A DNA stretch of 64,000 nt from Candidatus Zhuqueibacterota bacterium (GCA_049322915.1 JBMOPW010000004.1:99343-163342); one strand, 5' to 3'; shown: positions 45,927-63,158, counted from the first letter of the stretch. Program-made: numbers and translations. Notes: generated from the letters alone by a model not told the origin.

Positions 45927-45949
45927 GGGTTTCCTTTCATATTTTAATT

Positions 45950-46402
45950 TCATAGCTGCCCTGTCACAAGTCGATAGAGAATAATTGCCAATGACCCTGC
46001 TGCAAAAATTCCGAAAAAATAAAGATATTCCATTCCAAATCTTTTCCATGAGAATTTGGATTTTGCCCAATCCGGTATTTCCCCTTCAAATGTTACTGTA
46101 AGGCTGCCAACTCGAAATAAAATATATGCCGGTAGGTAGAAAAACAGGATAAGTAAAGGGACTCCAAAAATTAATTGCGGTATTTGTGCAATAAGAGCAG
46201 GTAATAACCCTGAGGTAGCAATAAAAAGAACTCGTTCATTTAAAAAACGTTTGTTAGAATATTCAGGTTTTTGCTCATTATAAGTTTGATTCTGTTGGGG
46301 ATCCAGCTTTCTTAAACAATCACGGCAAGAAGGTTTTTTATCCCAAACAAATGAATTCCTGAACGATAATTTTGCACCACAATAAAAACAATTTTGAGCC
46401 AT
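45950..46402 (-). CDS. Zn-ribbon membrane protein
   Basis: CFYC...CRDC followed by about three TM segments. Confidence 0.6.
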   Translation of the reverse strand: MAQNCFYCGAKLSFRNSFVWDKKPSCRDCLRKLDPQQNQTYNEQKPEYSNKRFLNERVLFIATSGLLPALIAQIPQLIFGVPLLILFFYLPAYILFRVGSLTVTFEGEIPDWAKSKFSWKRFGMEYLYFFGIFAAGSLAIILYRLVTGQL

Positions 46403-46517
46403 AATTAACCTTTCAATTTTATAATTGCAAATATTTTTAAAATTAGAATTGATTTAATACCAATATCACTTCGGACCGATGACAACAACGACAATAATAA
46501 ACAGTACTATTATCTCC

Positions 46518-47201: not shown

Positions 47202-47215
47202 TTAGTATTCTCCGA

Positions 47216-47791
47216 TTATTTAAATTTATCCATAACCAAAATGGACTGAGCCTTCACCTCATCATTCGTTTCTTTCCCGCTAACCTGGCTTACCTTTTCT
47301 TTGAGCATGTCATACGTCATATTAATATACCCAAACGCTTGTTTCGGTTTGTTGGTGAACAGAATCCCTTCATATTTTGCAGCGATTGAATATGCTACAT
47401 TGGATTCTGTTTCTCCCTTTAGCTGTTTTAGTTTTTCCAAATCAATGTTTTTCAGAATGACGCTGAATCCTTTCCAGGCTTCCATGCGTTTTGCATCGTT
47501 TTCTGATGAGTCCATAATAGCCAGCAAATCTTTGACGATGACTGTTTTCAACCCATTTTTTTGTTGTAACAGCGGAAGCACCTCGCCCATTACGCCCATG
47601 GCTGAAAATCCTTTGGCTTTTTCTATTTTGCGGACTAGCTTTTGGTCATTCTTTGTCAGATCAATGAAGTCATTCACTTTTTTATGAACATCAACATCCG
47701 GGGATGAGAATTTCAAACCAGCTTGTTGAGAGGCGCAACCGAGAATTAACAATGTTATTATAATTGAGAAAAGTTGTTTTATTCGAACCAT
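47216..47791 (-). CDS. Putative lipoprotein
   Basis: Lipobox ILGC; AAGGAG RBS. Confidence 0.65.
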   Translation of the reverse strand: MVRIKQLFSIIITLLILGCASQQAGLKFSSPDVDVHKKVNDFIDLTKNDQKLVRKIEKAKGFSAMGVMGEVLPLLQQKNGLKTVIVKDLLAIMDSSENDAKRMEAWKGFSVILKNIDLEKLKQLKGETESNVAYSIAAKYEGILFTNKPKQAFGYINMTYDMLKEKVSQVSGKETNDEVKAQSILVMDKFK

Positions 47792-47827
47792 GATGTTACT
47801 CCTTCTGTTTTTAAGGTTTATTAAAAT

Positions 47828-49012
47828 TTAGCGATCTGTATAAATTGTTTTGTTCCCAATGGTAATGGAGTTTTCTGTAACTGAAGGCCTTCCTTCTCCG
47901 TTTTTGAACAGGTCTACTATCTGGCCATATTTTTTCGTAATTGGAACAGATATTTTACGAACTGAGCTGCTTGTTTCAATTTTCAAAAACTCATCGAATA
48001 CATCATTCTTAATATATTCCATTTCAATGTGAGTTACCAATCCTGAAAGATGTCTTGTATGGAACCTGAACCAGAGGGTTTTATACTTTTGCCAGGCAAA
48101 TAATCGCACCGATGCGTTCTTTTGATGATCAGGATTCATTTGGTTAATGAGTTCAAAATAGTTTTTATCAATTTCTTCTTTTTGTGTTTGGTACAAATTA
48201 TGGTAACGGTCTGTCTGGGCCATCATCGCATCGAAACCCATATTGGAATAAATGGCAGGTTTATTTCGGTCGAGATAGTTCAGTATGCTGACAATTGTGT
48301 TGTATGATTTCGTAATCTCATTCTTCTTTGCAGACTCCTCTATTCTAATTTTTTCCATTTTGTTTTTTGCTTCATCAATATTCTGCCCGTTTGGGTATCT
48401 TTTTAAATACAAGTCAAATGAAGCAACCGAATTTTCTTTTGATGCTCTTGTGAAAAATTCATTTTCCGGGTATTCGAATGATGTGTCTGCCTTGGCTTTT
48501 TGATAGGAGACGTCGTATAGTTTTTCCTGGGCTTTGTTAGAATATTTACCTGAGGGATTTTTTTCTAAAAAGCCTTGGTAGGAAGTGATCGAATTGGTTT
48601 TGCGTGCTAACGAAAAATCCAATAACTCCTTGGCTTGGGACAAATAACTGTGTTGAGGATTTTTACTGATGAAATTTTTCAATGTATCGATATTGGGATT
48701 GGCTTCCAATAGGTTAAATTCGTATTTTTCTATTTTCAATTTTGCGCTATCGGTCCAGATTGTCCCCTCATTTTCTGTAATGAAATTTTTATACAATTTC
48801 AAATCAAAGGTATCTTTAATGCTTTCAAAATTGATTCGGGCAATTTCATTCCTGGCAGCAATTGCATACTTACCTTCCGGAAATTCTGAAAGAAAATTAG
48901 TGAATGCTTCCACCGTATTTATAGATTTCGCTTCATCGAAAGCTTTTTTAGATTTGCTGCATGAAAATAGAATAATAAATATGAGTAGAAAAATAAAATA
49001 TTTTGAACGCAT
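47828..49012 (-). CDS. Lipoprotein with five ~35-aa helical repeats
   Basis: Lipobox LFSC; repeats of F..A...N(T/S)...(F/Y)..FL...P.G.Y...A. Confidence 0.7.
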   Translation of the reverse strand: MRSKYFIFLLIFIILFSCSKSKKAFDEAKSINTVEAFTNFLSEFPEGKYAIAARNEIARINFESIKDTFDLKLYKNFITENEGTIWTDSAKLKIEKYEFNLLEANPNIDTLKNFISKNPQHSYLSQAKELLDFSLARKTNSITSYQGFLEKNPSGKYSNKAQEKLYDVSYQKAKADTSFEYPENEFFTRASKENSVASFDLYLKRYPNGQNIDEAKNKMEKIRIEESAKKNEITKSYNTIVSILNYLDRNKPAIYSNMGFDAMMAQTDRYHNLYQTQKEEIDKNYFELINQMNPDHQKNASVRLFAWQKYKTLWFRFHTRHLSGLVTHIEMEYIKNDVFDEFLKIETSSSVRKISVPITKKYGQIVDLFKNGEGRPSVTENSITIGNKTIYTDR

Positions 49013-49086
49013 GATAAGCTCCCTTAGCGTATTTTGGGAAATCTAAATGAAATCAGTTTTTAAGTCCTGAATTTTGAGATGATATT

Positions 49087-49791
49087 TTAAAACAAAAATC
49101 CCAGCTTCACCATCATCACCGAATTGGCAATCTCGGCTTCGTCCAGCACTGAACCCATTCCGCGATAGTAACGGGCGTCGGCGGTTATGCCAGACGGGAA
49201 TTCGATGCCAATGCCGAGGATATAGCCAAATTCGGTGCCTTCGAATTCATCGAAATCCTCTTCCTCCTGGTCGGAGTCGTCGCCGGAACTGACTTCAACC
49301 ATAAGTTTGGAACTGGACAAAAACGAAATCACCGGGCCGCCGAACAAAACAAATTGAGATGTGTAGCTCTGGTTCAGTTTTTTCAGTTTCAGGAGAAGCG
49401 GAATTTCGATATAGTTGAGCTTGTATACAATTTTTGTATCAAAGTTGTAACGCTCGCCTGTGTAATCATCCCTGAATGAAATATCACCGGAATAATTAGC
49501 GCCGCGCATGGTATAATTAAATTCAGGCTGGAGCACGAGCACGTCGTTCATTCGATATTGAAAAAAATACCCGAATGAGAATCCGAGCCGCGAACCTTTG
49601 GTGAACGATCCGCCGGACATGCCCATTTCGCTGAAAGCCGAGCTGAATGCATCGACCATTTCTTCAGCGTCCTTGCCTATCCAGTTAGCCATGTTAAAAC
49701 TGGATGAAATACCGTGTTTGATCGGCGAGGTTTGAGCAAAAGAGAGTGTGGCGCATAAGAGCAGAATTAGTGTGCAAGTAGTTTTCTTCAT
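49087..49791 (-). CDS. PorT/porin-family outer-membrane beta-barrel
   Basis: Signal peptide; LQPEFNYTMRG, LNYIEIPLLLK, GPVISF, DARYYRG; C-terminal Phe. Confidence 0.8.
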   Translation of the reverse strand: MKKTTCTLILLLCATLSFAQTSPIKHGISSSFNMANWIGKDAEEMVDAFSSAFSEMGMSGGSFTKGSRLGFSFGYFFQYRMNDVLVLQPEFNYTMRGANYSGDISFRDDYTGERYNFDTKIVYKLNYIEIPLLLKLKKLNQSYTSQFVLFGGPVISFLSSSKLMVEVSSGDDSDQEEEDFDEFEGTEFGYILGIGIEFPSGITADARYYRGMGSVLDEAEIANSVMMVKLGFLF

Positions 49792-50055
49792 TGTTTCTCC
49801 TAAGTCGGATAAACCGGAAATTGCAAAACTCAATAACCAAATAACATGCAAATTACAAAGCCAAATTTCAAAAAATCAAACTCGGACAGGTTCGTCTGGT
49901 TGTTCATTTTTGAAAAATGTTTGAAAATTGATATTTTGTAATTTGGAATTTATTTGATATCAGCTAAAGGCTTGTGCGTCCTCTGGCGCATTGAATTTTA
50001 TTTTTAAGGAACTAACATTTTTTTAAATATTTTCTCACTGAAATCAACTATTTTT

Positions 50056-50256
50056 CTAAATCCCTTCCCCTCGACTAATCGCTTCCATCACAATTCTTCT
50101 GGCGGCTCGGGCGCCACCGTCGTTGGGATTAAGCTGCAGCGCTTTTTCGTAGCAGGCCAATGCTTCACGATAGCGTTTCTGGTAGGCAAGGTCCTGTCCT
50201 TTGTAAAACCACTGTCTGGCTTCTTCTGCTAAATTGCCTTTGTTTTTAAAAAACAT
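50056..50256 (-). CDS. Small single-TPR protein
   Basis: WFYKGQDLAYQKRYREALACYEKALQLNPND; GGAGG RBS. Confidence 0.7.
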   Translation of the reverse strand: MFFKNKGNLAEEARQWFYKGQDLAYQKRYREALACYEKALQLNPNDGGARAARRIVMEAISRGEGI

Positions 50257-50444
50257 AATTTCCTCCAATAATGTTAACATATTCAATAGTTATTGTTTTA
50301 ATTATAAGTACATATTTTTGCACTGTACAGAGAAATGTCCAAAATAAAAAAGGAACTGGAAATTGGACTTTTCATTTCCCATTTTCCGGTTCCCAATTTT
50401 CCGTTAAACTAATTCAGAGGATTGTGCTCTTAGTTTCTATTTGA

Positions 50445-50921
50445 TTACTGAATACTGTCTCCTGTGGAAGAGAAATCCTTAACCAGGTGGCACTTGTCGA
50501 GTTTTTCCCTGCCTTCAACAGCGCTGAGAAGGACAAGATTAGTGCGGGCTTTCAGAAATCCCATTTTAACCTGCTGTTCCAGGTAATAGGTTTGGCCGGC
50601 TTTAAGATTCAGAATCTGCTCGCTCTTGTTTTCGGATTGGGACATCAATTGATGCCGGCCCGGGTCCAAAAGCATGTACAGGTAGCGTTGGCCGGTGGTG
50701 GTGCCCACTTTTTTATTGTCGCAGAAAACATCCATGCCCACGGCGAATCCGTATGTTGTGGGGCGAATAACGTACACGAGCGCTTTGTCTTCCGGCACGG
50801 CCACGGCTTTGGCGCGTTGATCCAGGGCAAGGTCTGCCTTGGGCATGGAACCGGCGCAGGAAAACAGAATCGAACATACAAAGAACAGGAAGAGTACGTA
50901 GATTAATTTTTGTCTTTTCAT
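50445..50921 (-). CDS. DUF2846-type lipoprotein
   Basis: Lipobox LFSCA; KALVYVIRP, LDPGRHQL, AGQTYYLEQ. Confidence 0.8.
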   Translation of the reverse strand: MKRQKLIYVLFLFFVCSILFSCAGSMPKADLALDQRAKAVAVPEDKALVYVIRPTTYGFAVGMDVFCDNKKVGTTTGQRYLYMLLDPGRHQLMSQSENKSEQILNLKAGQTYYLEQQVKMGFLKARTNLVLLSAVEGREKLDKCHLVKDFSSTGDSIQ

Positions 50922-51013
50922 CAGGTGCTCCATTTATCTTTAAGAAGCATGAAAACGATCGTTGCAAGCTGTTTGAATTTAGCGTATTCGATTTATTAAT
51001 TTTGTTTTGGAGA

Positions 51014-51628
51014 TTAGAAAAGGTACCGCATGTTCAACAGCACACCTTTGGAGTTGGGCACGTACGAAAATGAATATTTAAGATTTTCAGGAATGAAGCC
51101 GGATAAATTGCTTTCATTATAAATCGTTTCCCATTTATGCTGTGACGCGCCGTAAATTCCGCCGATGATCAAACCGCCGATGGTGAAACCAATGGTCATA
51201 TTTCGAATCACTTCATCGCCGTTGGTGACGGTTTCGCCGTTCATCAGGGCTTGATTTTCAGCGTCGTTCACGCCCTGCACAGCGCCGAGAAAACCGGACA
51301 ATCCGCCGATCAGCGCGCCCCAGATGGCGTATTCAGCAGCTTTTGTTCCGCGGCTGATTTTGATCAGGTAGACGTTATTGAGTCCGATATTTTCTTCATT
51401 GGAAATTATACCGGGGGCGGTGGCAGGTTTGAAGGTCAGCACGTCATCCAAAATGCTCAGGCTGTTGACATTGTACAGCGTGGTGGACTCGTCATTGAGG
51501 TAAATCATCGCTTTGGAGTACTGGTGGCTTCCCGGAAAGAATAATTCGGCGGAGGTTCCATTCTGAGAAAATGCCTGCACAGAAAGAGAAAGTAGAATGA
51601 GTAAAGAGAGCGTGATTTTTTTCTTCAT
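51014..51628 (-). CDS. Exported/membrane protein with glycine-zipper helices
   Basis: Signal peptide; GALIGGLSGFLG and GFTIGGLIIGGIYG. Confidence 0.65.
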   Translation of the reverse strand: MKKKITLSLLILLSLSVQAFSQNGTSAELFFPGSHQYSKAMIYLNDESTTLYNVNSLSILDDVLTFKPATAPGIISNEENIGLNNVYLIKISRGTKAAEYAIWGALIGGLSGFLGAVQGVNDAENQALMNGETVTNGDEVIRNMTIGFTIGGLIIGGIYGASQHKWETIYNESNLSGFIPENLKYSFSYVPNSKGVLLNMRYLF

Positions 51629-51855
51629 GTAGCGTTACTCCTGAAAAAAAATTATTAGTAAATGAAGTGATTTAGTTATTTTTAAATTTTTTCCGGATTG
51701 AAGTAAAACAAAGGCTGCTCAAATTCGAGATAATCCATTGAAATCGGATTTGTATGTTTGTTTCACGTATCTGAATAGAGCAGCTCTTTGCTCGATGTGA
51801 TGGAAGGTGCGGGTCCATCATCGTGTTAAAATGCATGAAGCATGTCAACGTAATG

Positions 51856-51884
51856 AAGACGTATGAGTTGTGAAGATTTTGCAA
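51856..51884 (-). promoter_or_regulatory. ECF-type promoter motif, copy C
   Basis: Minus strand TTGCAAAATCTTCACAACTCATACGTCTT. Confidence 0.7.
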
Positions 51885-52065
51885 AAAGTTTGAATTGATG
51901 TAAATATTTTAATCATTTGGTCTGGTCAATTATGTTTTGATGATGCGAATTTCCGATTCATACCATCAAATTCATGAGCGAGAAATTTGTACTCTTAATC
52001 CGGTTGATTCCCCGGAATTAGAGAACTGGTGGAAAGTGAGAATCGATTTCCCGCTAAGATCCAGA

Positions 52066-52380
52066 TTAATAGTTGCCGGACAAAAGAAGCTCCCATAAGG
52101 CATACCTCGCTCCGGTAGAACCGCATTGGGGGCATTTCATGGTGTCTCTTCGGGCTGAGTGAGGTTCACAATAGATTGTGCCACAATCGTAACAGGCAGC
52201 AAGTCCTGTGTGTCCGTGGGCGATATACCAGGTCGGTTTCTTTTGTTCAAACGTTGTCCGCCAGTTTGCGTCAACTTCGTATTCACACCAGTAATTGCAT
52301 TTGAAACATTCAGCGCGAAGTTTAATTGTTCTATTAGGACGAGCCAGATCTGCACCGTTTTGTCTTGTCTGAATATTCAT
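52066..52380 (-). CDS. Small Cys/His-rich Zn-binding protein
   Basis: CFKC...CYDCGTIYCEPH...CPQCG; GGAGA RBS. Confidence 0.6.
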   Translation of the reverse strand: MNIQTRQNGADLARPNRTIKLRAECFKCNYWCEYEVDANWRTTFEQKKPTWYIAHGHTGLAACYDCGTIYCEPHSARRDTMKCPQCGSTGARYALWELLLSGNY

Positions 52381-52481
52381 TGTTTATCTCCGGAATAATG
52401 TGTGCAATATTTTCACTATCAAGCTTTTAAAAAATGGTTTGGTATACCCACTAGGACTGCGTTTGGGTTTGGTTGCCAGAA

Positions 52482-52814
52482 TTACAAACTTCGAAATCCA
52501 TCCAGCGTTATTTTTGCTTTTTGATGTCCCTGCCGTGAAGCCTTTTCCATTAACTCCACCGCTTTATCGAAGCTCTGCGGAACACCCTCGCCGGCGCCAT
52601 AGAGCACGCCCAAATTAAACTGCGCTTCAGCGAGACCTTTGCCGGCAGCTTTCTTATACCAATACGCGGCCTCGCGTAAATCCTGATTGACTCCTTTGCC
52701 GTATTCGTAGGCTTCGCCAAGTTTATTCTGGGCAAGCGCATCGCCCTGTTCTGCTTTTTCTTTCAACGCCTGAATGTTGGTGCCGCCGAAGATTTTTTTG
52801 AAAAAATTTGACAT
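52482..52814 (-). CDS. Sel1-repeat protein
   Basis: AQNKLGEAYEYGKGVNQD...WYKKAA and AQFNLGVLYGAGEGVPQ. Confidence 0.85.
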   Translation of the reverse strand: MSNFFKKIFGGTNIQALKEKAEQGDALAQNKLGEAYEYGKGVNQDLREAAYWYKKAAGKGLAEAQFNLGVLYGAGEGVPQSFDKAVELMEKASRQGHQKAKITLDGFRSL

Positions 52815-52900
52815 GGGTTTGTCCTAGATTTTATTTTAGCTCTCGATTGTTATTACTTAAGATTTATGAAAACGGGCATACATGGAATTCGGTCGATTGA

Positions 52901-53809
52901 TTAACTTGTTTTTCGAACGATCCATCCCAATAAACCAAAGAGAAACTCGAGTCCGCCAAAAATGATCGCACCAATCCAGATGGTATGTTCAGCGATCGCG
53001 GTGGCGAATATTCCAAGCAATAAAATGCTAAGCCCGATTCCAATATGTTTGGTGAATTTTTGTAAATCATCGCCTTTTTTGATTACATCACGTTTTTCAA
53101 CATTGGTCGTAATTTCGGACTGGCAGGCAGGGCAAGTTTCAATCGAGTTAACGACCAGACTCCCGCACTTTGCACAATCGATGACATAGTCTTCATTTTC
53201 AGCTTTCCCATTTTCAGGTTTAGCGGATTTGAATTTCCGGGTGAGCAATGTCCTCGCTTCGGCGAATTTCTTTTTTTGCAGATCAGTAAAATCTATTGCA
53301 TAAAGTGAGCGCTTGTGCTTGCCTTTTTGCAGGGTGTCGCTACTCAGTATAAAATCGATACTCCCGGCGCCGGAACCCTTCACATTGAATAAAATAGCTT
53401 TGATTTCACTGAATAAAAATTCTTTGTCGATTTTATTTGGGATTAAATTCGAAGTTAAATTTAGCAGACCTGATGTGAGTTTACCGATTGCGCCGGAGCC
53501 GCCAGTTTTAATTTGAATTTTATTTTCATAAATGTGTAATTCAGTAAGCATACCTTTGGCGATAAGCAACGGCTCAGAATTATTGGGACTGGATTGCGGC
53601 TTTTCAGGCGCATGTTTCAAATTATCTTTTCGAATTGTTTCCTGAACAGGAATTTTCGATGTATCCCCCTTAAACAATTTCCCGCCACATTTTTCGTTAA
53701 ATTTTTTGGGATAGGATTGAACATTTTCATGAATTTCAGAACAGACTCCGATGCTACTGTCGTAATAGTCGCAATGGGGGCAGTAGTCTTCCATTGATAG
53801 GTTAGCCAT
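52901..53809 (-). CDS. Membrane-anchored protein with Cys-rich N-terminus, beta-rich (PH-like) middle domain and Zn ribbon
   Basis: CPHC..C..C; CAKC...CPAC; two C-terminal TM helices; GAGGGGAG RBS. Confidence 0.65.
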   Translation of the reverse strand: MANLSMEDYCPHCDYYDSSIGVCSEIHENVQSYPKKFNEKCGGKLFKGDTSKIPVQETIRKDNLKHAPEKPQSSPNNSEPLLIAKGMLTELHIYENKIQIKTGGSGAIGKLTSGLLNLTSNLIPNKIDKEFLFSEIKAILFNVKGSGAGSIDFILSSDTLQKGKHKRSLYAIDFTDLQKKKFAEARTLLTRKFKSAKPENGKAENEDYVIDCAKCGSLVVNSIETCPACQSEITTNVEKRDVIKKGDDLQKFTKHIGIGLSILLLGIFATAIAEHTIWIGAIIFGGLEFLFGLLGWIVRKTS

Positions 53810-53876
53810 TTAAAATCTCCCTCGATATTAGTAAAATGTTATGTCTCTTTTTGGAGAACCGTATACTAACATAAGA

Positions 53877-53905
53877 AAGACGCATCAGTTGTGAAAATTT
53901 TGCAA
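53877..53905 (-). promoter_or_regulatory. ECF-type promoter motif, copy B
   Basis: Minus strand TTGCAAAATTTTCACAACTGATGCGTCTT; 26/29 identical to copy C. Confidence 0.7.
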
Positions 53906-54032
53906 TTATTCAAAAGTGAATGAAAAAAAGAGAGGGTTCCGGGTAAGTTTGTGAAGAGAAATCGAAGCATTAAAACGAAAATGGATTCTTGGGGATATAG
54001 AGAGGCAACAATAACTGCTCATTTAAAAAAAG

Positions 54033-54569
54033 CTAATTTTTCTGACTGCCGCCAACCTCCATATTCGCGATCTTCCGGCCCCGCAAATACAGCACGTACA
54101 CGCCTGCATCGAGATCGTCTATTTTGATTTCGCCGCCGGGGAGCACCGGGTAGCTGCACAAAAATTCACCTTTGGGGGAATAGATTTCCAGTTTGTCGTG
54201 AATGGTCTGCAATTTGAACGTGACGCGACCGCCATCATGAACCCACGGTTTTCCAAGCTCTTCCACCGGCGTGCTGCGCGTGGCAAACTGGAATGGCACA
54301 ATTTCAAGGCTGAGAATAATCTCTTTGGCTTTTGTCAGTGTATCTCTGACATGCGTCTTGCGTTTGACTACTTCTTTTCCAATTTCTTCGAACACCAGGT
54401 TTTTAATTTTCAATTGCAATTTATTCAATTGCCTTTTGTTCTCTCTGTTCAATTCCCTGTTTTGCTGCAAAAAATCTTTCAGCCCTAATCGGTCTAATTC
54501 TTTCTGAAGCTCGGAAATTAGTTTGTCTCTGGAATTTTCGTTTAAAAAATTCTCATCGTTTTTCATCAT
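54033..54569 (-). CDS. Soluble putative anti-sigma factor (helical N-terminus, small beta-sandwich C-terminus)
   Basis: Starts 10 nt after the sigma stop; no TM helix; FATRS linker; GEIKIDDLDAGVYVL motif. Confidence 0.55.
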   Translation of the reverse strand: MMKNDENFLNENSRDKLISELQKELDRLGLKDFLQQNRELNRENKRQLNKLQLKIKNLVFEEIGKEVVKRKTHVRDTLTKAKEIILSLEIVPFQFATRSTPVEELGKPWVHDGGRVTFKLQTIHDKLEIYSPKGEFLCSYPVLPGGEIKIDDLDAGVYVLYLRGRKIANMEVGGSQKN

Positions 54570-54579
54570 TTTTCCTCTG

Positions 54580-55158
54580 TTATATTTTTCCAAGTTTTTT
54601 CAATATGCAGCGAAATAGTTTTACCTTTTGCCTGTGCCAGATGCTTCCGGCAGTTGTGGGCGGGCAGTTGTTTCGTTGGGCAATTTTTTTCAGTGAAAAG
54701 CCATGAACATAGTCCAGCAGTATGTTTCGAATATGTTCCTGTGGAAAATTGCTGATACACGAATTCAGCGCCAGTTCCAGTTCGGCTTGTGTGATGAGCC
54801 CGGGAGACTCGGTTTGCTGCCAGTTTACAAATGAAACCAGGTCGATGTAACTCTCGCCATTGGCAGACTCGGAGTTTTGAAACATGGTGCCTGTTTTTTT
54901 TCTGCGCAGGTAATCGCAGAAAGCGTTTCGGCAACAAATGAACAGATAATCTTTGAAGCTTTTTATTTTTTTGCCGGCATTCACGGTTCGGATGATTTTC
55001 AAAAAGACGTTTTGCACTACATCTTCAATATCACCCCGATCGCGGATTTTATCGATGAAATAGGCGTACGTCCTCTCCAAATATCGCTGGAAGAGTTCAT
55101 TCAAAGATTCGATATCGCCAAGTTGCTGATATTTTTTAAGTAATTCTTCGTCTGTCAT
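54580..55158 (-). CDS. ECF RNA polymerase sigma factor
   Basis: MTDEELL, DIEDVVQNVFLKI, FKDYLFICCRNAFCDYLRR, GFSLKKIAQ. Confidence 0.88.
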   Translation of the reverse strand: MTDEELLKKYQQLGDIESLNELFQRYLERTYAYFIDKIRDRGDIEDVVQNVFLKIIRTVNAGKKIKSFKDYLFICCRNAFCDYLRRKKTGTMFQNSESANGESYIDLVSFVNWQQTESPGLITQAELELALNSCISNFPQEHIRNILLDYVHGFSLKKIAQRNNCPPTTAGSIWHRQKVKLFRCILKKLGKI

Positions 55159-55330
55159 GTTTTTTTTTGAATCGATTCATTGTGCTAATTTTTTGGATAG
55201 CCCCGGGGTGCGGCGATCCCCATTGGTCTTTACACAGATTTTCCATTGTGTCTGCTTCGGCCGCGAGCAAACGCAAAGATCGATTTGGCCTCCCGGGTAT
55301 TCCAATCGGGTTCTGTGGGTTCCGATTATA

Positions 55331-55359
55331 AAGACGTTTGAAACGGAAATATTTTTCAA
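55331..55359 (-). promoter_or_regulatory. ECF-type promoter motif, copy A (upstream of the sigma gene)
   Basis: Minus strand TTGAAAAA-N15-CGTCTT, same spacing as copies B and C. Confidence 0.55.
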
Positions 55360-57461
55360 AAATTTTGCCAGAGCGAAGGGAGCATCCAAAAAAGATGTCC
55401 GCTTTCCAGAAATCGGGCTTGGGCCGCCCATTTTAACCTTGTCTGCTGCAAGGCTTTGGAATACGAAAACTGGTTGGCAAACAGGTTCCAGTAAAAATCC
55501 ATGGAAAATTCGGCAGAGGCGCGGTCATCTGTGACGGACATATTCCCCAGAAATGCTTGCCCCCCGGCTTTTAAAAAAGCAGGAGCAAATCCACAGAAGG
55601 AAAGTGAGGTAGCATTATTTCCGGCGCTGTTGCAGCCGTTCAAATAGAAAAAAAGCGGAGGCGCAGATATTTCAGAAAATATATCATTTGCGGTCACGGC
55701 TTGTGCGCGACCTGATTTACACTGTTTTTCCCACAAAAAAATGTGTGTTTTCAGGGAAGCCGGGTCCGGGCTGCAATGCCCGGCGAAATGGATGATATGA
55801 AAATGATTCGATCTCAGTGATCTCATCACAGAACCGAAATCGGATTCGTGGGATAAAAGCGTGGAAATTTTCAGGCTCAGCCCGTGCTCCCTGGCAATTT
55901 TGTGGAACCGGTTTTTCAACAAAATTATTTCATTGTCCACAAATGGAATGTCCGGCGGCGTATCCGAAGCGATGAGCAAAATATTTATTGGGTCGTCCGT
56001 GGGGAAATGATAGACATCCGTCACCTTTCCATCGACCAGTGACCGATATATTGCTTTGCGCAGCGAAACGAAGGAGTCGCCGTTGTGGAGAATTTCAAAT
56101 GGAAATCGAATCAGTTCCTCGATTTCAGATGAAAAAACAAGGTCGCTATTCTTTTCTGTGGCGTAAAATTTACTGAATAAATCCAGAGAGTCCTGTGTTG
56201 GAAAAAGGTCTGAAAATAATTTTTGCCCAAGTTTTTTAAGCGATTGAATATTCCCGAAATCACTAATGATGTAGCGATGTGGATCGAGCGCATTATTCAA
56301 TTGGTGGACTTCAGTGATATCGCCGTTTTTGGACGTGCAGATTTTCTGAAATTCTTCCGTAAAAAAAATCTTCAATTTTTCTGAGGACTCGACACCGTAT
56401 TTAGGCGATTGGACTGATGGCGGCTGTTCGGAAATGTTCTCCGCGATCCAGGTCCTCAAGAAATAATTATTCAGGGCGAATTTTTGATCGGAATTTTGTT
56501 TTGCAAATCCCAGCCATGAGAGCGTGTTAAGCCGTTTTTGAATATGGTTGATTGAAATATTCAGTTTTGGTGCGATGGCTTCGATATAGGATGGTTCAAG
56601 ATGGATCAGGTTGGCAAGAATTTGATAATCCACCTGGTCAAAATATTGGAAGTCGTCTCTGAAAAAAAGGTCTAACACATTGTTTTGGCGAATGGTTTCA
56701 ATGGTGGCTTTTAGATTGCCCTGGTCAAAAAAGTAAAAACAAATCATTTGAACTAAAAAAGGCAGGCAGCCGGCAAATTCGATGATTTTATCCTGTTCCG
56801 CCACATCCCCAGTGCAGCGTCGAATGAGCGCCCGGGCTTCATCTTCGTCCCACGGCGTGATATAATCCGGGGGAGAGAACGCCTGCAAAAATGGCGCTAA
56901 AAAATGTGTGGTGCTGAGTTTGTCGTACGAGGCCAGACCATGATTGGAAGCCAAAATAACGGAAAGCATCGGCTGGTTCAAAAGAATGGCTCGGAATTGA
57001 TGCAGGAATTGTTCATCCTGCACAGCGACGCGAAACAATGCTTCGGACTCGTCGACCAACAACACAACGTGCACGGATTTTTTCCTGCACTGACGAATGA
57101 GGCAGCGAAGGTCCCAATAGAGGGATTCGCGTTCGAAGTGGTCGAGATCGAATTCAATTTCCAACCGGCTGAATTCAAATTCAGCCGGTTCGAGGGCGTC
57201 GATGAAGCTCAACTTCAAATCATAAACAGAATTAGCGCCGGACACATCCCAAAACAGAGGAATCATTCTGTCCTGTTTTCGGTACTGGCGCTGCAAGTAA
57301 CGGAGCAACGACGTTTTGCCCATGCGTCGCGCGCCAATGAGCCAGTTGAATTGCCGCTGTAAAGGCAGGTATTTTTGGATCAGGTCTTTACGGCCAATAA
57401 AGTCCGCGTCGTTTTTAATCCAGTCGCCGACGATAAACGGATTCTTTTGATATTCGGTCAT
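55356..57461 (-). CDS. STAND-like ATPase - winged helix - CHAT (caspase-like) protease
   Basis: NPFIVG...FIGR, Walker A GARRMGKTS, Walker B LLVDESE, GCLPF, wHTH; CHAT motifs FPFEILH, ILLIASD, IIHFAGH, FYLNGCNS, FSMDFY. Confidence 0.88.
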   Translation of the reverse strand: MTEYQKNPFIVGDWIKNDADFIGRKDLIQKYLPLQRQFNWLIGARRMGKTSLLRYLQRQYRKQDRMIPLFWDVSGANSVYDLKLSFIDALEPAEFEFSRLEIEFDLDHFERESLYWDLRCLIRQCRKKSVHVVLLVDESEALFRVAVQDEQFLHQFRAILLNQPMLSVILASNHGLASYDKLSTTHFLAPFLQAFSPPDYITPWDEDEARALIRRCTGDVAEQDKIIEFAGCLPFLVQMICFYFFDQGNLKATIETIRQNNVLDLFFRDDFQYFDQVDYQILANLIHLEPSYIEAIAPKLNISINHIQKRLNTLSWLGFAKQNSDQKFALNNYFLRTWIAENISEQPPSVQSPKYGVESSEKLKIFFTEEFQKICTSKNGDITEVHQLNNALDPHRYIISDFGNIQSLKKLGQKLFSDLFPTQDSLDLFSKFYATEKNSDLVFSSEIEELIRFPFEILHNGDSFVSLRKAIYRSLVDGKVTDVYHFPTDDPINILLIASDTPPDIPFVDNEIILLKNRFHKIAREHGLSLKISTLLSHESDFGSVMRSLRSNHFHIIHFAGHCSPDPASLKTHIFLWEKQCKSGRAQAVTANDIFSEISAPPLFFYLNGCNSAGNNATSLSFCGFAPAFLKAGGQAFLGNMSVTDDRASAEFSMDFYWNLFANQFSYSKALQQTRLKWAAQARFLESGHLFWMLPSLWQNF

Positions 57462-57478
57462 AGGTTCAGATTCAGAAT

Positions 57479-60400
57479 TCAGTTCGTTGTAAAATCGGTC
57501 CAGTGGCTTGCTGATTTTTCAGGTTTCAATTGCGTCTTCGAATTTTTTAGAATGTTTATAACGTCCTGTTTTTTTATGGTTCGGCGATGTTCATCCAGCG
57601 CCTGGTTGATTAGATTCAGGCACAGCACCTGGATCAGATAGGGCTTGCATTTGGTGGCCTCCAATATGGCTTCCAGGGCTTCGTTTTTAAATTTGAATAT
57701 TCCCTTCACCGGCACATAGATAAGCTTTTTTGCGTCTTCCCGGGAGATTGGTTTTAATTCAATTAATGTGAAAAGATTCCACCAGGGGCTTTCCGGGCGA
57801 TTCCAGTTATTAATGTAAGAAGTGCCGGAAATAATGGCGGCGAAATTCATGGAAAATTCCTGCATGAAAATTCGGCGCAGTTGTGCATGGATCGCCTGGT
57901 CGTATTGGTTCATGGCATCGGCTTCATCGATGAGAAGTACGATTTTAACCGTTTTAATCGTACTTTGATTCATGTGAAAAATTATCTTCCGGAAATCATT
58001 ATTAAAATCGCGGTAGTTGTAGTTATCTTTTTTATCCTGAATTCGAAGGCCACAGTCTTTTGGTACATTGTCCACCTGTTCAACAATATCGTGCATCATG
58101 CCGTGAAAAAACTCCCACTGACCAATGCCCTGCAAATCTACAAACACCGGGATGAATTTGTAATCCGGATCATTTTTTTCCGTGAGCTGGTTTTTAATCT
58201 GCAACAAAAGCGAGGTTTTACCAATTCTCCGTTCGCCGGTTATCATGATGCTGTTGTTGTGCACGATGGAAAGAATTCGGTTTTGGATTTCGTTTCTTCC
58301 AAAAAAAAGATTTTGTTTGAAAATGGGTTCACCGGCAATATACGGATTGAACCGGCGCCGGCGAATGAGTTGATTGATTTTGTAATAACGATAAATGAAG
58401 AAGAGAGCGATTAGCGCCAGAACCAGGCTGAATAAAAACCACTTGAACCAAAAACGTAAAATTAGCGGTGTCGTTTCCAAATGAATTTGGACTGAAGCGA
58501 ATTCCGATGACATGAGTCCATTGGGAGTTGCTGTTTTAATTTCAAAGGTGTGATTTCTGCCAGGCTCTAATTCTGTGTAAATTATTCTGTTATTGCGGGT
58601 GAATTCGCTCCATTGGCCCGGTTTTTCATCCTTGATAATTCGATAGGAATATCGCAATGCCTGTGAAGGAAACGACGAATGGTAGCCGAAAAATTCTATG
58701 GCGCAGACAGGGTCATTATAACTGCGAAAGATAGGGCGCTGCAATGCTGATTCTTCGTAAATGTCATTGCCGATCTGGCAGTTTCGTATGGTGATGACAG
58801 GTGGGATGGATTGCATTTGAAACTGGAGGAGTTCACCCTCAAGGGTGATGCCGGTTATCTTGTTTTTATCGTCACACAAAAAATTCGGAGAGAAAACATC
58901 GTCAAATTTACTATGAAAATCGATTTCAGGGAAAGCGTAAAGGTTCCCGTTGTCAAAATAACTTAAACCGTAGTTCGAGGCGAGAATTGGCTGGCCATAA
59001 GAATCGAAGCCAATGCTTTTTATGTTGCTGCTAATTACTTTTGAATTACTGCCCCAATGCGTGCACGTATCGCCTTTCAAAAACGCGATGCCTTCATCTA
59101 CTGAAAGCACCCAGAGAGAGCTGTCCCTTGCCGGATGCAGTGAAAGAAGGTTTGAAATTTTTTCAATGGATGGATTCGATACAGTTCTGAAAACATCGTC
59201 CTCCAGAACAGCAATGCCGGTGTTGTACGTAGCAACCCACACTGTGCCATCGAGCGTTTCGGCAATGTCGACGATTTCATGACCCGGCAGTCCCTGGTCA
59301 ACCGAATACCGCGTTAATGTGTTTCCATCCCAGCAAGCCAGGCCGGGGCTGATCAACCTTTCATGCTCCAGGAAAAAGTCCCTGAAATTTAACGACTTTC
59401 CCATGAACGCTTCTCTCAAGTGAGCATCGGACAAAATGCACTCCCGGGGCAGAAATTCGAATTGCTTCCCATCCAATCGCGCGTAATCCGCATTGCGAAG
59501 GCACACGTATAGTTGATTATCGCTGCTCTCACCTATTCCCCAAATGGACGGATGGGGCAGGTTTTCTTTATAAATTCTGATTCCATTTTTTTGGAGCAAG
59601 ACCAATCCATTGTCCAGCGTTCCCATCCAAAAATTACCGGCGTTATCTTCGTAAAATGTAGAGATGGAGCGACCCGCATTTTTCATGGCGTGACTCTGGT
59701 AAAATCTGCCATCTTTCCACATGAACAAACCAAAATCCAGGGTTCCAACAAACAAATCACCGCTTTTGCTTCGGTGCAATGCGGAAATTTTATGGGATGG
59801 CATTCCAAAGTCGCTGTTGTAATGGATGAGCGTGTCCTGGTTTACATAGAATAATCCAACGCTGTAGCTGCCAACCCATGCGCCGTTATCCGGATCATTG
59901 TTTATTGACGAAATATTATAAATATTTTTTCCCTGGGATTTTTTATAATTCCTGTTTGAATTAAAAGAATAAAAGCAATTGGTATTGTAGAAAAAATCAC
60001 CGTGGCTCCATTCAAATTGATCCGCGAGACCGGAGTCATAAATTTCAGGGATTTGAAATGAAAATCCGAGTATGTTAATCTTGTTTTTCGGAATGTCAAA
60101 TTTGAATATGCCGCGGAGAAGAGTTCCCCAGAGTTCGTTATTCAACAAGTGGAGATTTTGGATGTTGTAATAATAGGATCCGGTAAATTGAAGCCATGGT
60201 TTTTGGGTGAATTGGGAATTCTCCGATTTGAACAATGTGCTCGATCTGGTGCCAAACCAGACTGTGTTGGTTTCATCCACAAGCTGTGAAGTTACGATAA
60301 CTTCAGGTGAAAAGGAATGGTGCTCGGCGAATTCGGAATATTCAATTATCGGGGATTTGGGATTATTCAAATGCATGAGATATGAGTGCGCGCCGATCCA

Positions 60401-61744
60401 AAGTCGGTTTTGGGAGTCGACGAAAATGGTGGAGATGCATTTCGCTGGAAATTCACTTTCCGGAATTGGTCTGTCGAATTTTTCCCCATCCCAGCGAAGA
60501 ATGCCATTCCCTAACGTAGCGAACCAAAAATTTTCATCGTAATCCTGGGCGCAGTCCGTCACTTTAATGTTTTTAAGGCTGTCGGGCCATATAAATCGCG
60601 AGTTTTTCTGACCATCGAAATAATAGATTTGATTTGCGCCATAGCTGAACCAGACTTTGCCTGATTTGTCTTCGAAAATCAAATTATTATTTAGAATTTC
60701 GTATGGCGAGGGATTTGTTGCCTGCGAAGGTATTGGATAGGAACTGATTTGTGGATTTAGGTATTTATAAATACCCGTTGAAGTAGCAAACCAAATATTT
60801 TGAAACCTGTCCTGGAACATGGTTCCACGTTCAGTATTTACGATCGAAAAATTGTGAAGCTCATTATTTTCCATGCAATAAATTGATTCATTTTTTAAAA
60901 ACCAGATCCTGCCCTGTAAATCCTCCATGAAAAAGTCGAAATAATAACCCCCTGAAAAAATATTTTGTGTTTGAAAAACTGTCTTAAGCTCCGGGAACTG
61001 TAAAATTTTGTTGCGTGTTAGAATGAGTGAATATTTTTCATCTTTGCTCACGAAATAGCTTAGAATGTGTTGATTATTTTTGAGAAGTGGGGTTAGATTA
61101 TTTCGATCCTGTTCACTAAAGAGGTAAACCCCGGAACGTGCATAAAAGAAATGATAGTTCTGATCATCGATTTGGAAAATTTGGAGGATATCATCCCGAA
61201 GCAAATCATATTTTTCAGTGAGATTAATGCATTCTGTTCCATCAAATCGAAATAACCCAACGTGGTTGACGTCAATCCATATCCGTTCGTTTCGATCTTT
61301 GAAAAGGGAGGTGAAATGCTCTTTTCGGAAAAAAGAATTGAATTCGAATGGATAAAGCGATTCGAAATCATATATCCAAATGCCCTCGTAATTAATCGCA
61401 ATCCAAAGTTTGCCCTCATCATCCTTGATTACTTTCTGGATGAATAACGATGGAAGCTTTTCGTTGATTTCCAGTGGAATGAATTGCAGACCGTCATACC
61501 GATAAATACCGTCGTTAATGGTGACGATAAGGAGGTTGCCTTTATTGTCTTCCAAGACGTGCCGAATTTCATTTGTTGGCAAGCCGTTACTTGTTGTGAA
61601 ATGCGTCCACAGGGAAGGATTGGAAATGGGATTTTCTGCTCCGATTGCCGGGGCTAAAAAGAACAAGGTGCCTGAAAAACCAAAAAGCAGAAATCGAAAG
61701 AAAATGAAGAATGCTTTAGCGAACATATTCCGAATAAATTTCAT
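57479..61744 (-). CDS. Transmembrane receptor: beta-propeller (Reg_prop) repeats + YYY domain + TM helix + cytoplasmic STAND-like ATPase
   Basis: Signal peptide; many D..G.lWigT..G repeats (GLPTNEI, GMPSHKI, GLPGHEI); LRYSYRI...W...YTELEPG YYY domain; TM helix; NPYIAG...FFGR, GERRIGKTS, LLIDEAD. The start is uncertain (61843, 61744 or 61726). Confidence 0.88.
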   Translation of the reverse strand: MKFIRNMFAKAFFIFFRFLLFGFSGTLFFLAPAIGAENPISNPSLWTHFTTSNGLPTNEIRHVLEDNKGNLLIVTINDGIYRYDGLQFIPLEINEKLPSLFIQKVIKDDEGKLWIAINYEGIWIYDFESLYPFEFNSFFRKEHFTSLFKDRNERIWIDVNHVGLFRFDGTECINLTEKYDLLRDDILQIFQIDDQNYHFFYARSGVYLFSEQDRNNLTPLLKNNQHILSYFVSKDEKYSLILTRNKILQFPELKTVFQTQNIFSGGYYFDFFMEDLQGRIWFLKNESIYCMENNELHNFSIVNTERGTMFQDRFQNIWFATSTGIYKYLNPQISSYPIPSQATNPSPYEILNNNLIFEDKSGKVWFSYGANQIYYFDGQKNSRFIWPDSLKNIKVTDCAQDYDENFWFATLGNGILRWDGEKFDRPIPESEFPAKCISTIFVDSQNRLWIGAHSYLMHLNNPKSPIIEYSEFAEHHSFSPEVIVTSQLVDETNTVWFGTRSSTLFKSENSQFTQKPWLQFTGSYYYNIQNLHLLNNELWGTLLRGIFKFDIPKNKINILGFSFQIPEIYDSGLADQFEWSHGDFFYNTNCFYSFNSNRNYKKSQGKNIYNISSINNDPDNGAWVGSYSVGLFYVNQDTLIHYNSDFGMPSHKISALHRSKSGDLFVGTLDFGLFMWKDGRFYQSHAMKNAGRSISTFYEDNAGNFWMGTLDNGLVLLQKNGIRIYKENLPHPSIWGIGESSDNQLYVCLRNADYARLDGKQFEFLPRECILSDAHLREAFMGKSLNFRDFFLEHERLISPGLACWDGNTLTRYSVDQGLPGHEIVDIAETLDGTVWVATYNTGIAVLEDDVFRTVSNPSIEKISNLLSLHPARDSSLWVLSVDEGIAFLKGDTCTHWGSNSKVISSNIKSIGFDSYGQPILASNYGLSYFDNGNLYAFPEIDFHSKFDDVFSPNFLCDDKNKITGITLEGELLQFQMQSIPPVITIRNCQIGNDIYEESALQRPIFRSYNDPVCAIEFFGYHSSFPSQALRYSYRIIKDEKPGQWSEFTRNNRIIYTELEPGRNHTFEIKTATPNGLMSSEFASVQIHLETTPLILRFWFKWFLFSLVLALIALFFIYRYYKINQLIRRRRFNPYIAGEPIFKQNLFFGRNEIQNRILSIVHNNSIMITGERRIGKTSLLLQIKNQLTEKNDPDYKFIPVFVDLQGIGQWEFFHGMMHDIVEQVDNVPKDCGLRIQDKKDNYNYRDFNNDFRKIIFHMNQSTIKTVKIVLLIDEADAMNQYDQAIHAQLRRIFMQEFSMNFAAIISGTSYINNWNRPESPWWNLFTLIELKPISREDAKKLIYVPVKGIFKFKNEALEAILEATKCKPYLIQVLCLNLINQALDEHRRTIKKQDVINILKNSKTQLKPEKSASHWTDFTTN

Positions 61745-62055
61745 CAAGCAAAGCAGTAAAATGAACGACAGAAAAGAACTAAGGCTAAAAAAAATAGGAA
61801 ATAAAGACATGGAAATGGTAATAAAAATTTGTCTAAAAATCAAGGAAAAAGTTTTTCATTACTGGGTTTTTTATAGATCAGCCAGGTTCTATGCGTAACA
61901 TTTTAAAATTATATAAGATAGACTTTTTCTCTTGTATCTCACATTATTTAATCAAATCTTCTGCAAAGAATCTCACTTAATTTAGCCAAAATTTAATTTC
62001 CACTTTAGTTGTTTTTTTCTTATCTTGTTTCTGTCAATCAACAAAATAGACTTTT

Positions 62056-62640
62056 ATGGATGAAAAAAACGTGAACAGATCGCCCTGTTTCGCTATAGCC
62101 TGATCGTGCCGTTTCTTTCACACGAAGAGTTGCAACGGGGTGTCAAAGGCGAACTGTCGCAGCGCATGGTAAGGCAAATTCACACCATTCCCCATTCACA
62201 AAAATCTTAATTGGCCGAATCGACCATCCGTCGTTATCTTCGCTGCTACCGCAACAAGGGATTTGATGGCTTTAAACCGAAAAGCCGCAGCGATAGCGGC
62301 ACATCCCATAAAATCGACGGCGATACCCTGGAAAAAGCGTTTCTGTTGAAAAAAGAAGAACCACACCGCAGCTCGAAAAAGATTATTCAACTCATGGAAG
62401 CTCACCAGTGGGCGCCGTTGGGGTTGTTAAAGCCCAGTACACTGTCGCGGATTTTTAAGCAGCATGGTCTAACTTTCAAACAACTCAAACAGTCCCATAA
62501 AAGCTTTCGCGCCTTTCAGGCCGAACACCCAATCAAATATGGCAGTCGGATATTATGTATGGACCGTATCTGCCCGATCCTGAGCGACCCGCCGCTAAAA
62601 AACGAACCTATCTGGTGGCGATCCTGGATGATTTTTCCCG
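62056..62640 (+). mobile_element. Degenerate DDE transposase (IS481/Mu-like) fragment
   Basis: REQIALFRYSLI, STIRRYLRCYR...PKSRSD, WQSDIMYGP and LVAILDDFSR; frameshifts near 62065 and 62530, in-frame TAA at 62208; truncated at the repeat. Confidence 0.8.
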
Positions 62641-63158
62641 ACACAACGCTGAAAGAAATGGCGGTGCGCCAGCCGAAAACATGGAGCGAACTGAGTTCCA
62701 TCGTGGGCATGGGACAGTCGAAATTGAAGCGCTATGGTCTATGGTTTTTGAAAGAAATTCTGGCCTATCGCCAGGGCCAGGTCGCGCTGGGACATGCCGC
62801 ATCCGCTGCGCACGCCGGCTCAGGGCGGACAGAACTGCCCACAGAGCAGACAACGCTCCGGATGCTTCAACAGGGATTATCGCCGGAACAGGTGGCGGAA
62901 GAAAGAGCTATTTCGGCTCGAACTGTGTACCACCATATCGAGACCCTCATTCTGTCCGGTGAGAATCTCATTCTGGATAGGTTTTTGCCTTCCGACAAAC
63001 ACCGCGTGATCCGCAAGGTGCTGCATCAGTTAGGCGTGGATGATCTGGACAAAGTCCAGGCGCGTTTGGGCGACGGCTATTCCCGCCATGAGATTCGGCT
63101 GGTGCGGGCGAAAATGATCGCGGAGAAAAGGACGCGATCCAATGAAACGTGATCAGCC
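62629..63158 (+). repeat. 530-bp direct repeat, copy 2 (recQ 3' fragment)
   Basis: About 97% identical to 40905-41434 by manual count. Confidence 0.95.

Follow-up and report, generated by a model that had tools for sequence, protein, structure and literature searches.

A receptor ATPase paired with an ATPase-CHAT protease in Candidatus Zhuqueibacterota: a candidate transmembrane sensor/helper relay

The window analyzed here is a 64,000-nt stretch of DNA from a Candidatus Zhuqueibacterota bacterium (GCA_049322915.1 JBMOPW010000004.1:99343-163342). It contains a minus-strand gene, R (57479..61744), encoding a predicted membrane receptor that ends in a P-loop ATPase, and downstream of it a gene, A2-CHAT, encoding a paralogous ATPase followed by a winged helix and a CHAT protease. 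R and A2 are a near-obligate gene pair, and with slightly better than even confidence we regard R as the sensing half of a two-protein transmembrane sensor/helper ATPase relay with A2. A further step, from the CHAT protease to a sigma factor encoded next to the pair, is held less likely than the relay as a whole. The initial annotation of R, as a sensor ectodomain wired to a STAND ATPase and forming a sensor-only NLR-like receptor, is partly supported: the observation is confirmed, and the interpretation is right in outline but incomplete.

Receptor R and the paralogous partner A2-CHAT

The features of R and of its partner gene are listed below; residue numbers of R are counted from the TTG-started open reading frame (ORF) of 1454 codons.

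57479..61744, minus strand: receptor gene R (signal peptide or anchor, Reg_prop/Y_Y_Y ectodomain, one transmembrane helix, C-terminal ATPase)
61726 (ATG, database twin) and 61843 (TTG), minus strand: alternative starts of R
61637..61744, minus strand: N-terminal hydrophobic signal peptide or membrane anchor (ORF residues 34-69; hydropathy)
58481..61636, minus strand: predicted extracytoplasmic sensor of about 1,060 aa, Reg_prop propeller repeats followed by a Y_Y_Y Ig-like domain (Pfam)
58481-58666, minus strand: Y_Y_Y Ig-like domain (residues 1060-1121; Pfam)
58376..58468, minus strand: single internal transmembrane helix (residues 1126-1156; hydropathy), with an Arg-rich stop-transfer sequence after it
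57479..58360, minus strand: cytoplasmic receptor ATPase module, 293 aa, core and helical lid without a winged helix
58211-58237, minus strand: Walker A motif GERRIGKTS of R (residues 1203-1211)
57923-57937, minus strand: Walker B motif LLIDE of the R ATPase
57770-57805, minus strand: W-x-RPESPWWNLF motif of the R ATPase
55356..57461, minus strand: partner gene A2-CHAT, 701 aa (ATPase, winged helix, CHAT), 17 nt downstream of R on the same strand
57309-57335, minus strand: Walker A motif of the A2 ATPase (the ATPase spans residues 7-265)
A2-CHAT residues ~269-340: winged helix (weak profile and fold-chain matches)
A2-CHAT residues 411-683: caspase-like CHAT protease (Pfam, E 2.3e-18, 67.1 bits)

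The frame of R is uninterrupted over 57479..61843, and translation from the ATG at 61744 (ORF residue 34) gives a protein of about 1,420 aa. This start agrees with that of the same-genus orthologue, and a database twin of R, 1415 aa long, begins at the ATG at 61726.

The Pfam scan of R yields a strong Reg_prop match (E 3.2e-31, 103.8 bits), a Y_Y_Y match in residues 1060-1121 (25.7 bits at a cut-off of 26.6, which is exceeded by relatives of R among the 28 representatives scanned), an AAA_22 match in residues 1196-1345 (35.0 bits, cut-off 27) and an ATPase_2 (PF01637) match in residues 1188-1405 (28.8 bits, below the cut-off of 33.2, while relatives of R score 35-41 bits). At E<=0.01, no His-kinase, receiver, GGDEF, SpoIIE or AraC domain of Pfam is found in R, and no PDB sequence matches the whole protein (phmmer, 0 hits).

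The hydropathy profile contains two hydrophobic stretches only, the N-terminal region to residue 69 and residues 1126-1156. Since RYYKINQLIRRRR directly follows the internal transmembrane helix, the C-terminus of R is assigned to the cytoplasm by the positive-inside rule. These sequence features predict an extracellular position for the propeller region of about 1,060 aa and a cytoplasmic one for the ATPase. Between the transmembrane helix and the conserved RRFNPY motif there are only about 12 residues; with this motif the ATPase module begins its series of characteristic motifs: RRFNPYxAGEP, FFGR, GERRIGKTS, LLIDExD and W-x-R-P/E-E/G-SPW-W/Y-N-L/F-F. GERRIGKTS and LLIDE are invariant in the alignment of 27 receptor modules.

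The AlphaFold2 model of the last 293 aa of R, built on 27 aligned relatives (pLDDT 84.3, pTM 0.81), shows a five-stranded P-loop core with a helical lid and ends after the lid helices in 15 disordered residues, with neither a winged helix nor an effector. The best match among solved folds is 2qen, the Walker-type ATPase PABY2304 (E 1.1e-08, TMq 0.63), followed by RFC, Orc1/Cdc6 and TnsC, while the module profile finds only marginal P-loop matches among PDB sequences (ClpB, 0.012; 2qen, 0.019).

The anatomy of R thus bears out every structural element noticed initially: a Reg_prop and Y_Y_Y ectodomain wired to an ATPase and to no kinase (Pfam scan), a membrane-spanning topology (hydropathy and positive-inside rule), a transmembrane helix at about 58390-58455 (within the hydropathy stretch 58376-58468), a Walker A motif at 58211-58237 (exactly the place of GERRIGKTS), and an ATPase that ends without a winged helix-turn-helix (wHTH) or effector domain (AlphaFold2 model and Pfam). 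The label STAND/NLR-like fits less completely. It is favored by the Walker A and B motifs and by those relatives of R that pass the Pfam nSTAND1 cut-off of 27.1 bits (P0149, 34.4; P0151, 32.6; P0248, 32.6; P0126, 29.5 bits), as do the partner ATPases of loci L081 (34.6), L067 (28.4) and L063 (27.8 bits). However, R has no nSTAND1 match at E<=0.01, A2-CHAT reaches 22.7 bits, below the cut-off, and the nearest folds are 2qen and ORC/Cdc6/RFC; moreover, the R model lacks the winged helix after the helical domain, which is a STAND feature.

A2 and R are paralogues: residues 1166-1431 of R align with residues 7-265 of A2 (24% identity, E 3e-15), and R stops where A2 runs on into its winged helix. 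The winged helix is represented by weak matches of A2 residues 269-335 to DUF4423, Sta1 and Lrs14, by wHTH chains matching residues 271-330 in the comparison of the family profile with solved structures, and by MarR matches in relatives. The best solved-structure match of the A2-CHAT family profile is 2fna (3.9e-07). "Sensor-only" is a fair description of the R polypeptide, but the downstream A2 gene supplies the winged helix and the effector, and the earlier reading overlooked the A2-CHAT, sigma factor and small-protein genes; the unit is a sensor/helper pair. The candidate of a lone, sensor-only receptor was rejected given the partner gene.

The nucleotide and protease motifs of the partner are intact as well. 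G-x-RR-x-GKTS and D-E are invariant in the alignment of 22 partner ATPases, and H558, H562 and C610 of A2-CHAT are invariant in 17 of 17 family members; judged by its residues, the CHAT His/Cys dyad of A2-CHAT is intact. The A2-CHAT family consists of 30 clusters of 476-705 aa (29 of them at 669-705 aa), reaching down to 32% identity.

Pairing, exchangeable ends and spread of the module

For the pairing test, separate hidden Markov models of the receptor and partner modules were run against all six-frame ORFs of the loci, with the following results.

Genome loci with at least 6 kb upstream and 2.6 kb downstream, n=44: partner in 43 (40 downstream on the same strand, 3 upstream only)
Metagenome loci with at least 6 kb upstream and 2.6 kb downstream, n=14: partner in 14 (13 downstream, 1 upstream)
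Genome loci with at least 1.3 kb downstream, n=68: partner directly downstream in 59
Metagenome loci with at least 1.3 kb downstream, n=56: partner directly downstream in 47

A partner ATPase gene adjoins R in 57 of the 58 well-flanked loci, and L077 is the sole well-flanked genome locus (1/44) that has none. The median spacing between the R and A2 module matches is 107.5 nt (n=124). In one protein, P0264 (1874 aa), Reg_prop repeats, a Y_Y_Y domain and an R module (residues 1032-1310) are followed from residue 1314 by an A2-type ATPase that is 27% identical to A2-CHAT of the window (P0002; E 8e-27); P0264 is a natural fusion of the receptor and partner halves.

Both ends of the pair are exchangeable. 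The ectodomains of 28 representatives comprise Reg_prop (12), TPR (5) and FG-GAP (1), one relative is soluble and carries SIR2 and nSTAND1, and 9 have no recognized domain. Among the outputs of 24 partners there are C-terminal Ser/Thr Pkinase domains (8) and N-terminal OmpR-type Trans_reg_C domains (4), while 12 partners have no further domain; the latter are partners of 343-351 aa with the ATPase and winged helix only, Anaerolineae partners of 436-453 aa with a tail, and two others. CHAT is found in none of the 80 genome loci as a partner domain; it is the output in the window and in the metagenome loci L103 and L104, and within the phylum of the window no other genome joins A2 to CHAT with this query.

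Some partners have further peculiarities. In L062, L063, L067, L079 and L081 (Woeseiaceae-type and related) the winged helix is followed by a conserved hydrophobic, probably membrane, segment, and the partners of L062, L063, L067 and L079, with the N-terminal OmpR-type DNA-binding domain, are encoded upstream of the receptor gene and divergently from it.

The receptor module is widespread over several phyla, with identities of 40-58%, or 41-58% when compared with other phyla. The word-indexed search with R listed 795 proteins at E<=0.001 among 2,730 candidates. Among them, a Reg_prop ectodomain is present in 18 clusters of 1312-1421 aa, of which one bears the label candidate division KSB1, and in forms of 1078 aa, one belonging to Candidatus Amarolinea aalborgensis; many others are TPR forms of about 800 aa. 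In the exhaustive profile search, 1.84 billion cluster representatives yielded 15,747 matches at E<=0.001, of which 6,447 reach E<=1e-10 and 589 reach E<=1e-30; because of these 589 representatives we place the architecture far beyond chance. Among the 150 profile matches listed, the module is almost always C-terminal. In the metagenome scan a single-protein query gave no relative, while the query with alignment A1 did.

When one genome per species was scanned, 490 pattern matches yielded 438 coding relatives; the 80 best of these, which were examined, belong to Acidobacteriota/Vicinamibacteria, Chloroflexota/Anaerolineae, Woeseiaceae and other Gammaproteobacteria, plus one record labelled Cytophagia. 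Within the phylum of the window, the module is present in 32 of 167 genomes at E<=1e-30 (30 of 165 without G158 and G162, which are flagged as unpublished), and in none of the 13 other genomes of the window's own family. The fusion, which could have been unique to this assembly, recurs in many genomes and phyla, and an assembly-specific fusion artefact is ruled out by independent contigs and genomes with the same fusion.

Several relatives deserve separate mention. On contig C32 of the window's own genome (L002:967-3706), the C-terminal end of a Lon protease gene is followed by two soluble ATPase genes side by side (528 aa and >388 aa), the first being 31% identical to the receptor module; the genome thus has a further ATPase pair, one without a membrane part. 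Weak partner-type ATPase matches (27% identity) are present in G068:C307:8773-9609 (E 2.7e-12) and G069:C235:9847-10686 (E 1.8e-11), in ORFs of about 1,450 aa from two other members of the phylum, perhaps further long receptor forms missed by the receptor query. In the soluble P0168 (1173 aa), SIR2_2 and a full nSTAND1 domain (213.9 bits) are joined to an ATPase module of the receptor type (residues 716-981); the protein is a conflict-system-like relative of the receptor module.

The pairing bears on two other explanations of R. One may assume that R is an envelope-assembly ATPase of the ExeA/GspA kind, acting on a periplasmic structure, and that the neighboring ATPase is functionally unrelated to it. 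The AAA_22 match (35 bits), a weak match to the PEP-CTERM-associated ATPase TIGR03015 (E 9e-4, 18.7 bits against a cut-off of 324.5) and envelope genes downstream are consistent with this, but the topology of R is reversed, with the ATPase C-terminal to the transmembrane helix, and near-obligate pairing with a partner that bears signalling outputs does not fit an assembly role; we consider such a function highly improbable.

The second explanation inverts the logic: R would hold A2 inactive at the membrane in the manner of an anti-sigma factor, and the ligand would release A2. The pairing evidence fits this equally well, as does the absence of any output domain from R. On the other hand, the natural fusion P0264 cannot act by release, and conservation of Walker A and B in R suggests an active nucleotide cycle and not a passive tether, which makes control by release an unlikely arrangement. 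We retain the relay, in which R activates A2, as the working interpretation.

The four-gene cassette and the proposed relay

Downstream of A2-CHAT, two more genes complete a cassette of four.

54580..55158, minus strand: sigma-70 factor of the extracytoplasmic function (ECF) type, 192 aa (Sigma70_r2; TIGR02937)
54033..54569, minus strand: cassette-specific 178-aa protein, starting 10 nt after the sigma stop codon

The sigma factor is full-length and matches TIGR02937 (66.4 bits, cut-off 42.9); A2-CHAT, a protease with an intact catalytic site, is encoded next to it. A small gene placed directly behind a sigma gene is what one usually sees in sigma/anti-sigma pairs. The 178-aa protein consists of a variable N-terminal half, modelled with low confidence as a helical hairpin, an invariant stretch KEIILNLEI-l-PFQFATRS, and a conserved, well modelled C-terminal beta-sandwich of about 75 aa (pLDDT 84-92). 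Within the invariant stretch, the loop of residues 91-100 (LEI-l-PFQFATRS) has pLDDT 62, compared with 84 and 86 of its neighbors, and in the model is a candidate exposed recognition or cleavage loop. The protein as a whole is a candidate sigma inhibitor and protease substrate. Its family comprises only 17 clusters, of 165-178 aa, in 5.8 billion sequences, and in the ESM Atlas it finds sub-threshold clusters resembling Por_Secre_tail, the C-terminal domain of the type IX secretion system (scores 0.82-0.85, TM 0.34-0.43).

The metagenome locus L104 repeats the order of the window: R, A2-CHAT, sigma factor, small protein. Its R (1415 aa) has a Reg_prop ectodomain and a module 53% identical to that of the window; the ATPase-CHAT gene (687 aa) overlaps the R gene by 10 nt; the sigma factor in the same position is 46% identical to the one in the window (E 3e-56), and the small protein (164 aa) is 40% identical to the 178-aa protein (E 2e-29). 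The flanking genes of L104, for Na:alanine and SNF symporters at one end and for a BACON-domain protein at the other, are unrelated to those of the window. L103 is near-identical to L104 in gene layout, and the two may come from one organism.

Cluster data point in the same direction. The length of the longest contig is identical in nine pairs of R and A2-CHAT clusters (11659, 10531, 7642, 10068, 8291, 33477, 16293, 62014 and 7929) and in six pairs of A2-CHAT and small-protein clusters (17530, 5180, 12630, 8291, 10068 and 33477), and since these lengths coincide, we infer that the R, A2-CHAT and small-protein genes share contigs. The promoter/terminator scan gave fewer sites than in shuffled sequence and says nothing on operon structure, and no RNA run is listed among the sequencing runs containing the sequence, of which the only one with all of it may be the source sample.

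In the relay that we propose, a ligand outside the cytoplasm would bind to the R ectodomain; the analogy to hybrid two-component sensors of Bacteroides makes a glycan the probable ligand. The signal would pass through the single transmembrane helix to the cytoplasmic AAA+/STAND-like ATPase of R, which may contact A2 and thereby activate it. The simplest route would be the nucleation by R of a mixed, ATP-dependent oligomer, a logic resembling that of sensor/helper NLR pairs such as NAIP-NLRC4. The assembled partner would then activate its own output domain by proximity. In the window, activated CHAT might cut the 178-aa protein at the invariant exposed loop, and this cleavage might free the adjacent ECF sigma factor and switch on its regulon. 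Where a partner has nothing beyond the ATPase and wHTH, DNA may be bound by the winged helix, as it is in ORC/Cdc6.

The same-genus genome G124 matches positions 61881-58866 of the window at 82% nucleotide identity, its protein being 79% identical to residues 33-992 of R. The next match in G124, to positions 45284-44832, starts 8 nt before the end of the first one (an overlap of about 8 nt). The resulting ORF of 1049 aa (contig C5, L195/L199) is an in-frame fusion of the receptor ectodomain with the last ~89 residues of a methyltransferase-like gene (window 45009-46070). Thus, 13.6 kb of the window (45285-58865) are absent from G124, including Y_Y_Y, the transmembrane helix, the ATPase, the partner, the sigma factor, the small gene and about 12 envelope genes. 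The gap is either a deletion in this lineage or an assembly mis-join.

A number of points weigh against the relay or its sigma branch. Contact between R and A2 is an inference. The loci counted in the pairing test are not independent, as L005/L105 and L060/L159 are on the same contigs, L103 and L104 are near-identical, and ancestry is shared; adjacency of the paralogous R and A2 genes could partly mirror tandem duplication. The P0264 fusion is a single case and could be an artefact of gene calling or assembly. There is a gap of 197 nt between the A2-CHAT and sigma genes, given which they may be transcribed separately. The 178-aa protein belongs to no Pfam or NCBIfam family and matches no anti-sigma, Csx30 or CalpT model; Foldseek against PDB gives no match at E<=0.001, only generic beta-sandwich pieces, and the VIA wide fold search is dominated by the helical hairpin (Z <=7.3) and uninformative. 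As G124 shows, the receptor was once present in this genus, and the cassette can be dispensed with. Its occurrence is patchy too: the 13 other family genomes lack it, a remnant resembling an insertion sequence (IS) adjoins it, and G124 does not have it. Finally, according to the accessible text of PMC10907252, CHAT together with STAND-like ATPases is common in conflict and defense systems.

The last point leads to the strongest rival, in which the ATPase pair senses an attack on the envelope by a phage or predator and unleashes CHAT as a toxic or abortive effector, with the sigma factor inducing further defenses. Such a reading is favored by the patchiness of the cassette and its loss in G124, by the fusion of SIR2 and a complete nSTAND1 domain to the module in the soluble relative P0168, and by DdvA/DdvS, which ties CHAT and an ECF sigma factor to defense in what is accessible of PMC11506125. 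The P-loop region of R also has weak PADLOC matches to the candidate systems PDC-S01 (4.6e-06, 23.7 bits) and PDC-S27, but A2-CHAT has no PADLOC match. Moreover, most partner outputs are regulatory and not toxic (Ser/Thr kinase, OmpR-type DNA-binding domain, winged helix alone), the R sensor is a glycan-sensor-type ectodomain, and the neighboring genes encode envelope proteins and not defense genes. A defense role of the cassette thus appears rather unlikely, and the relay remains the interpretation we prefer.

More tentatively, and with somewhat less than even confidence, we suggest that the pair represents an unrecognized, phylum-spanning class of transmembrane signalling, apart from two-component, ECF/anti-sigma, Ser/Thr-kinase and ToxR-like systems, in which a receptor ATPase seeds a helper with an exchangeable output, here a CHAT protease that would free a sigma factor via an inhibitor of a new family. 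The relay module is present in Acidobacteriota, Chloroflexota, Gammaproteobacteria and the phylum of the window (some relatives being labelled candidate division KSB1). If the proposal is true, it provides a membrane-spanning bacterial counterpart of sensor/helper NLR pairs, and a membrane-bound model for their logic; another general route of transmembrane signalling, with ATPase assembly replacing phosphotransfer as the coupling step; a role for many proteins labelled "TPR repeat protein" or "two-component regulator propeller domain-containing protein"; and a CRISPR-independent example of caspase-like sigma control. The modular inputs and outputs could serve as engineerable sensors.

The surroundings of the cassette contain the following genes, among others.

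47828-49012, minus strand: YfiO-like lipoprotein
49087-49851, minus strand: OMP_b-brl_2 barrel
50445-50933, minus strand: DUF2846 protein
52482-52814, minus strand: Sel1-repeat protein

These belong to a group of small genes downstream of the cassette (46518-53809, minus strand), absent from G124, that encode predicted envelope proteins or proteins of unknown function; these genes could belong to the sigma regulon. A repeat of about 205 bp at 49801-50005 resembles a miniature inverted-repeat transposable element, with at least 40 copies in G124 (76-90% identity) and 11 weaker or partial extra copies in the window's own genome. Directly upstream of R, an ORF on the plus strand (62211-63152) combines N-terminal transposase-type HTH_28/29/32 with C-terminal HRDC and HTH_40 domains of the RecQ-tail type; the GC content of its region (0.49-0.51) differs from that nearby (0.35-0.45), and it may be an IS remnant or a chimera.

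Comparison with known systems

Searches of the full-text literature, with subscription-only papers and supplements outside their scope, found no description or characterization of a receptor-ATPase/partner-ATPase pair, and the R/A2 pair is apparently undescribed. The nearest wording is the phrase "transmembrane STAND ATPases", which in the accessible text of PMC12642450 refers to proteases fused to such sensors in Pepco defense modules.

In its sensor, R resembles the Bacteroides hybrid two-component sensors. The latter, BT4663 for example, have an extracytoplasmic Reg_prop and Y_Y_Y sensor and one transmembrane helix, and R shares the propeller, the Y_Y_Y domain and the single helix after them. 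R differs in the cytoplasmic part, where HisKA/HATPase, receiver and AraC domains are absent and a P-loop ATPase stands instead.

The nearest folds and profiles of R and A2-CHAT are those of the PF01637 archaeal ATPases (2qen, 2fna), a family whose function is, to our knowledge, not established, and of ORC/Cdc6. Unlike R, these proteins are soluble and have no ectodomain, transmembrane helix or paired partner. ExeA/GspA are, like R, bitopic membrane proteins with an AAA_22-type ATPase, but the domain order of R is opposite, R lacks a peptidoglycan-binding domain, and its partner bears signalling outputs.

Circuits in which a protease controls a sigma factor offer a parallel to the second half of the cassette. 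Craspase (the TPR-CHAT protein Csx29) with Csx30 and RpoE, and CalpL-CalpT-CalpS, are protease-gated sigma circuits, CalpT and Csx30 being named in the consulted part of PMC12642450. In DdvA-DdvS a periplasmic TPR-CHAT region is part of the anti-sigma factor DdvA, which its authors call, in the portion available, the only characterized anti-sigma factor of that kind (PMC11506125). In such systems, so far as the available portions of the sources describe them, a protease, an ECF sigma factor and a small partner are encoded together, and release of the sigma factor by cleavage has been proposed or demonstrated (PMC12642450, PMC11506125, PMC10028731). The window cassette likewise joins a protease gene to genes of an ECF sigma factor and a small partner. 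Its trigger, however, would be a membrane receptor ATPase and not CRISPR RNA or cyclic oligoadenylate, and while the CHAT domain of DdvA is periplasmic and lies within the anti-sigma factor, that of the window is predicted to be cytoplasmic and is fused to an ATPase.

The overall logic of the pair resembles that of STAND/NLR proteins (NAIP-NLRC4, plant sensor/helper NLRs, MalT, AfsR), which likewise have a P-loop ATPase of the oligomerization type; the partner, with its winged helix and swappable effectors, follows the same plan, and as in sensor/helper NLR pairs two paralogues split sensing from output. The sensor of R differs from theirs in its predicted extracellular place, on a separate membrane protein and N-terminal to an ATPase that has no winged helix.

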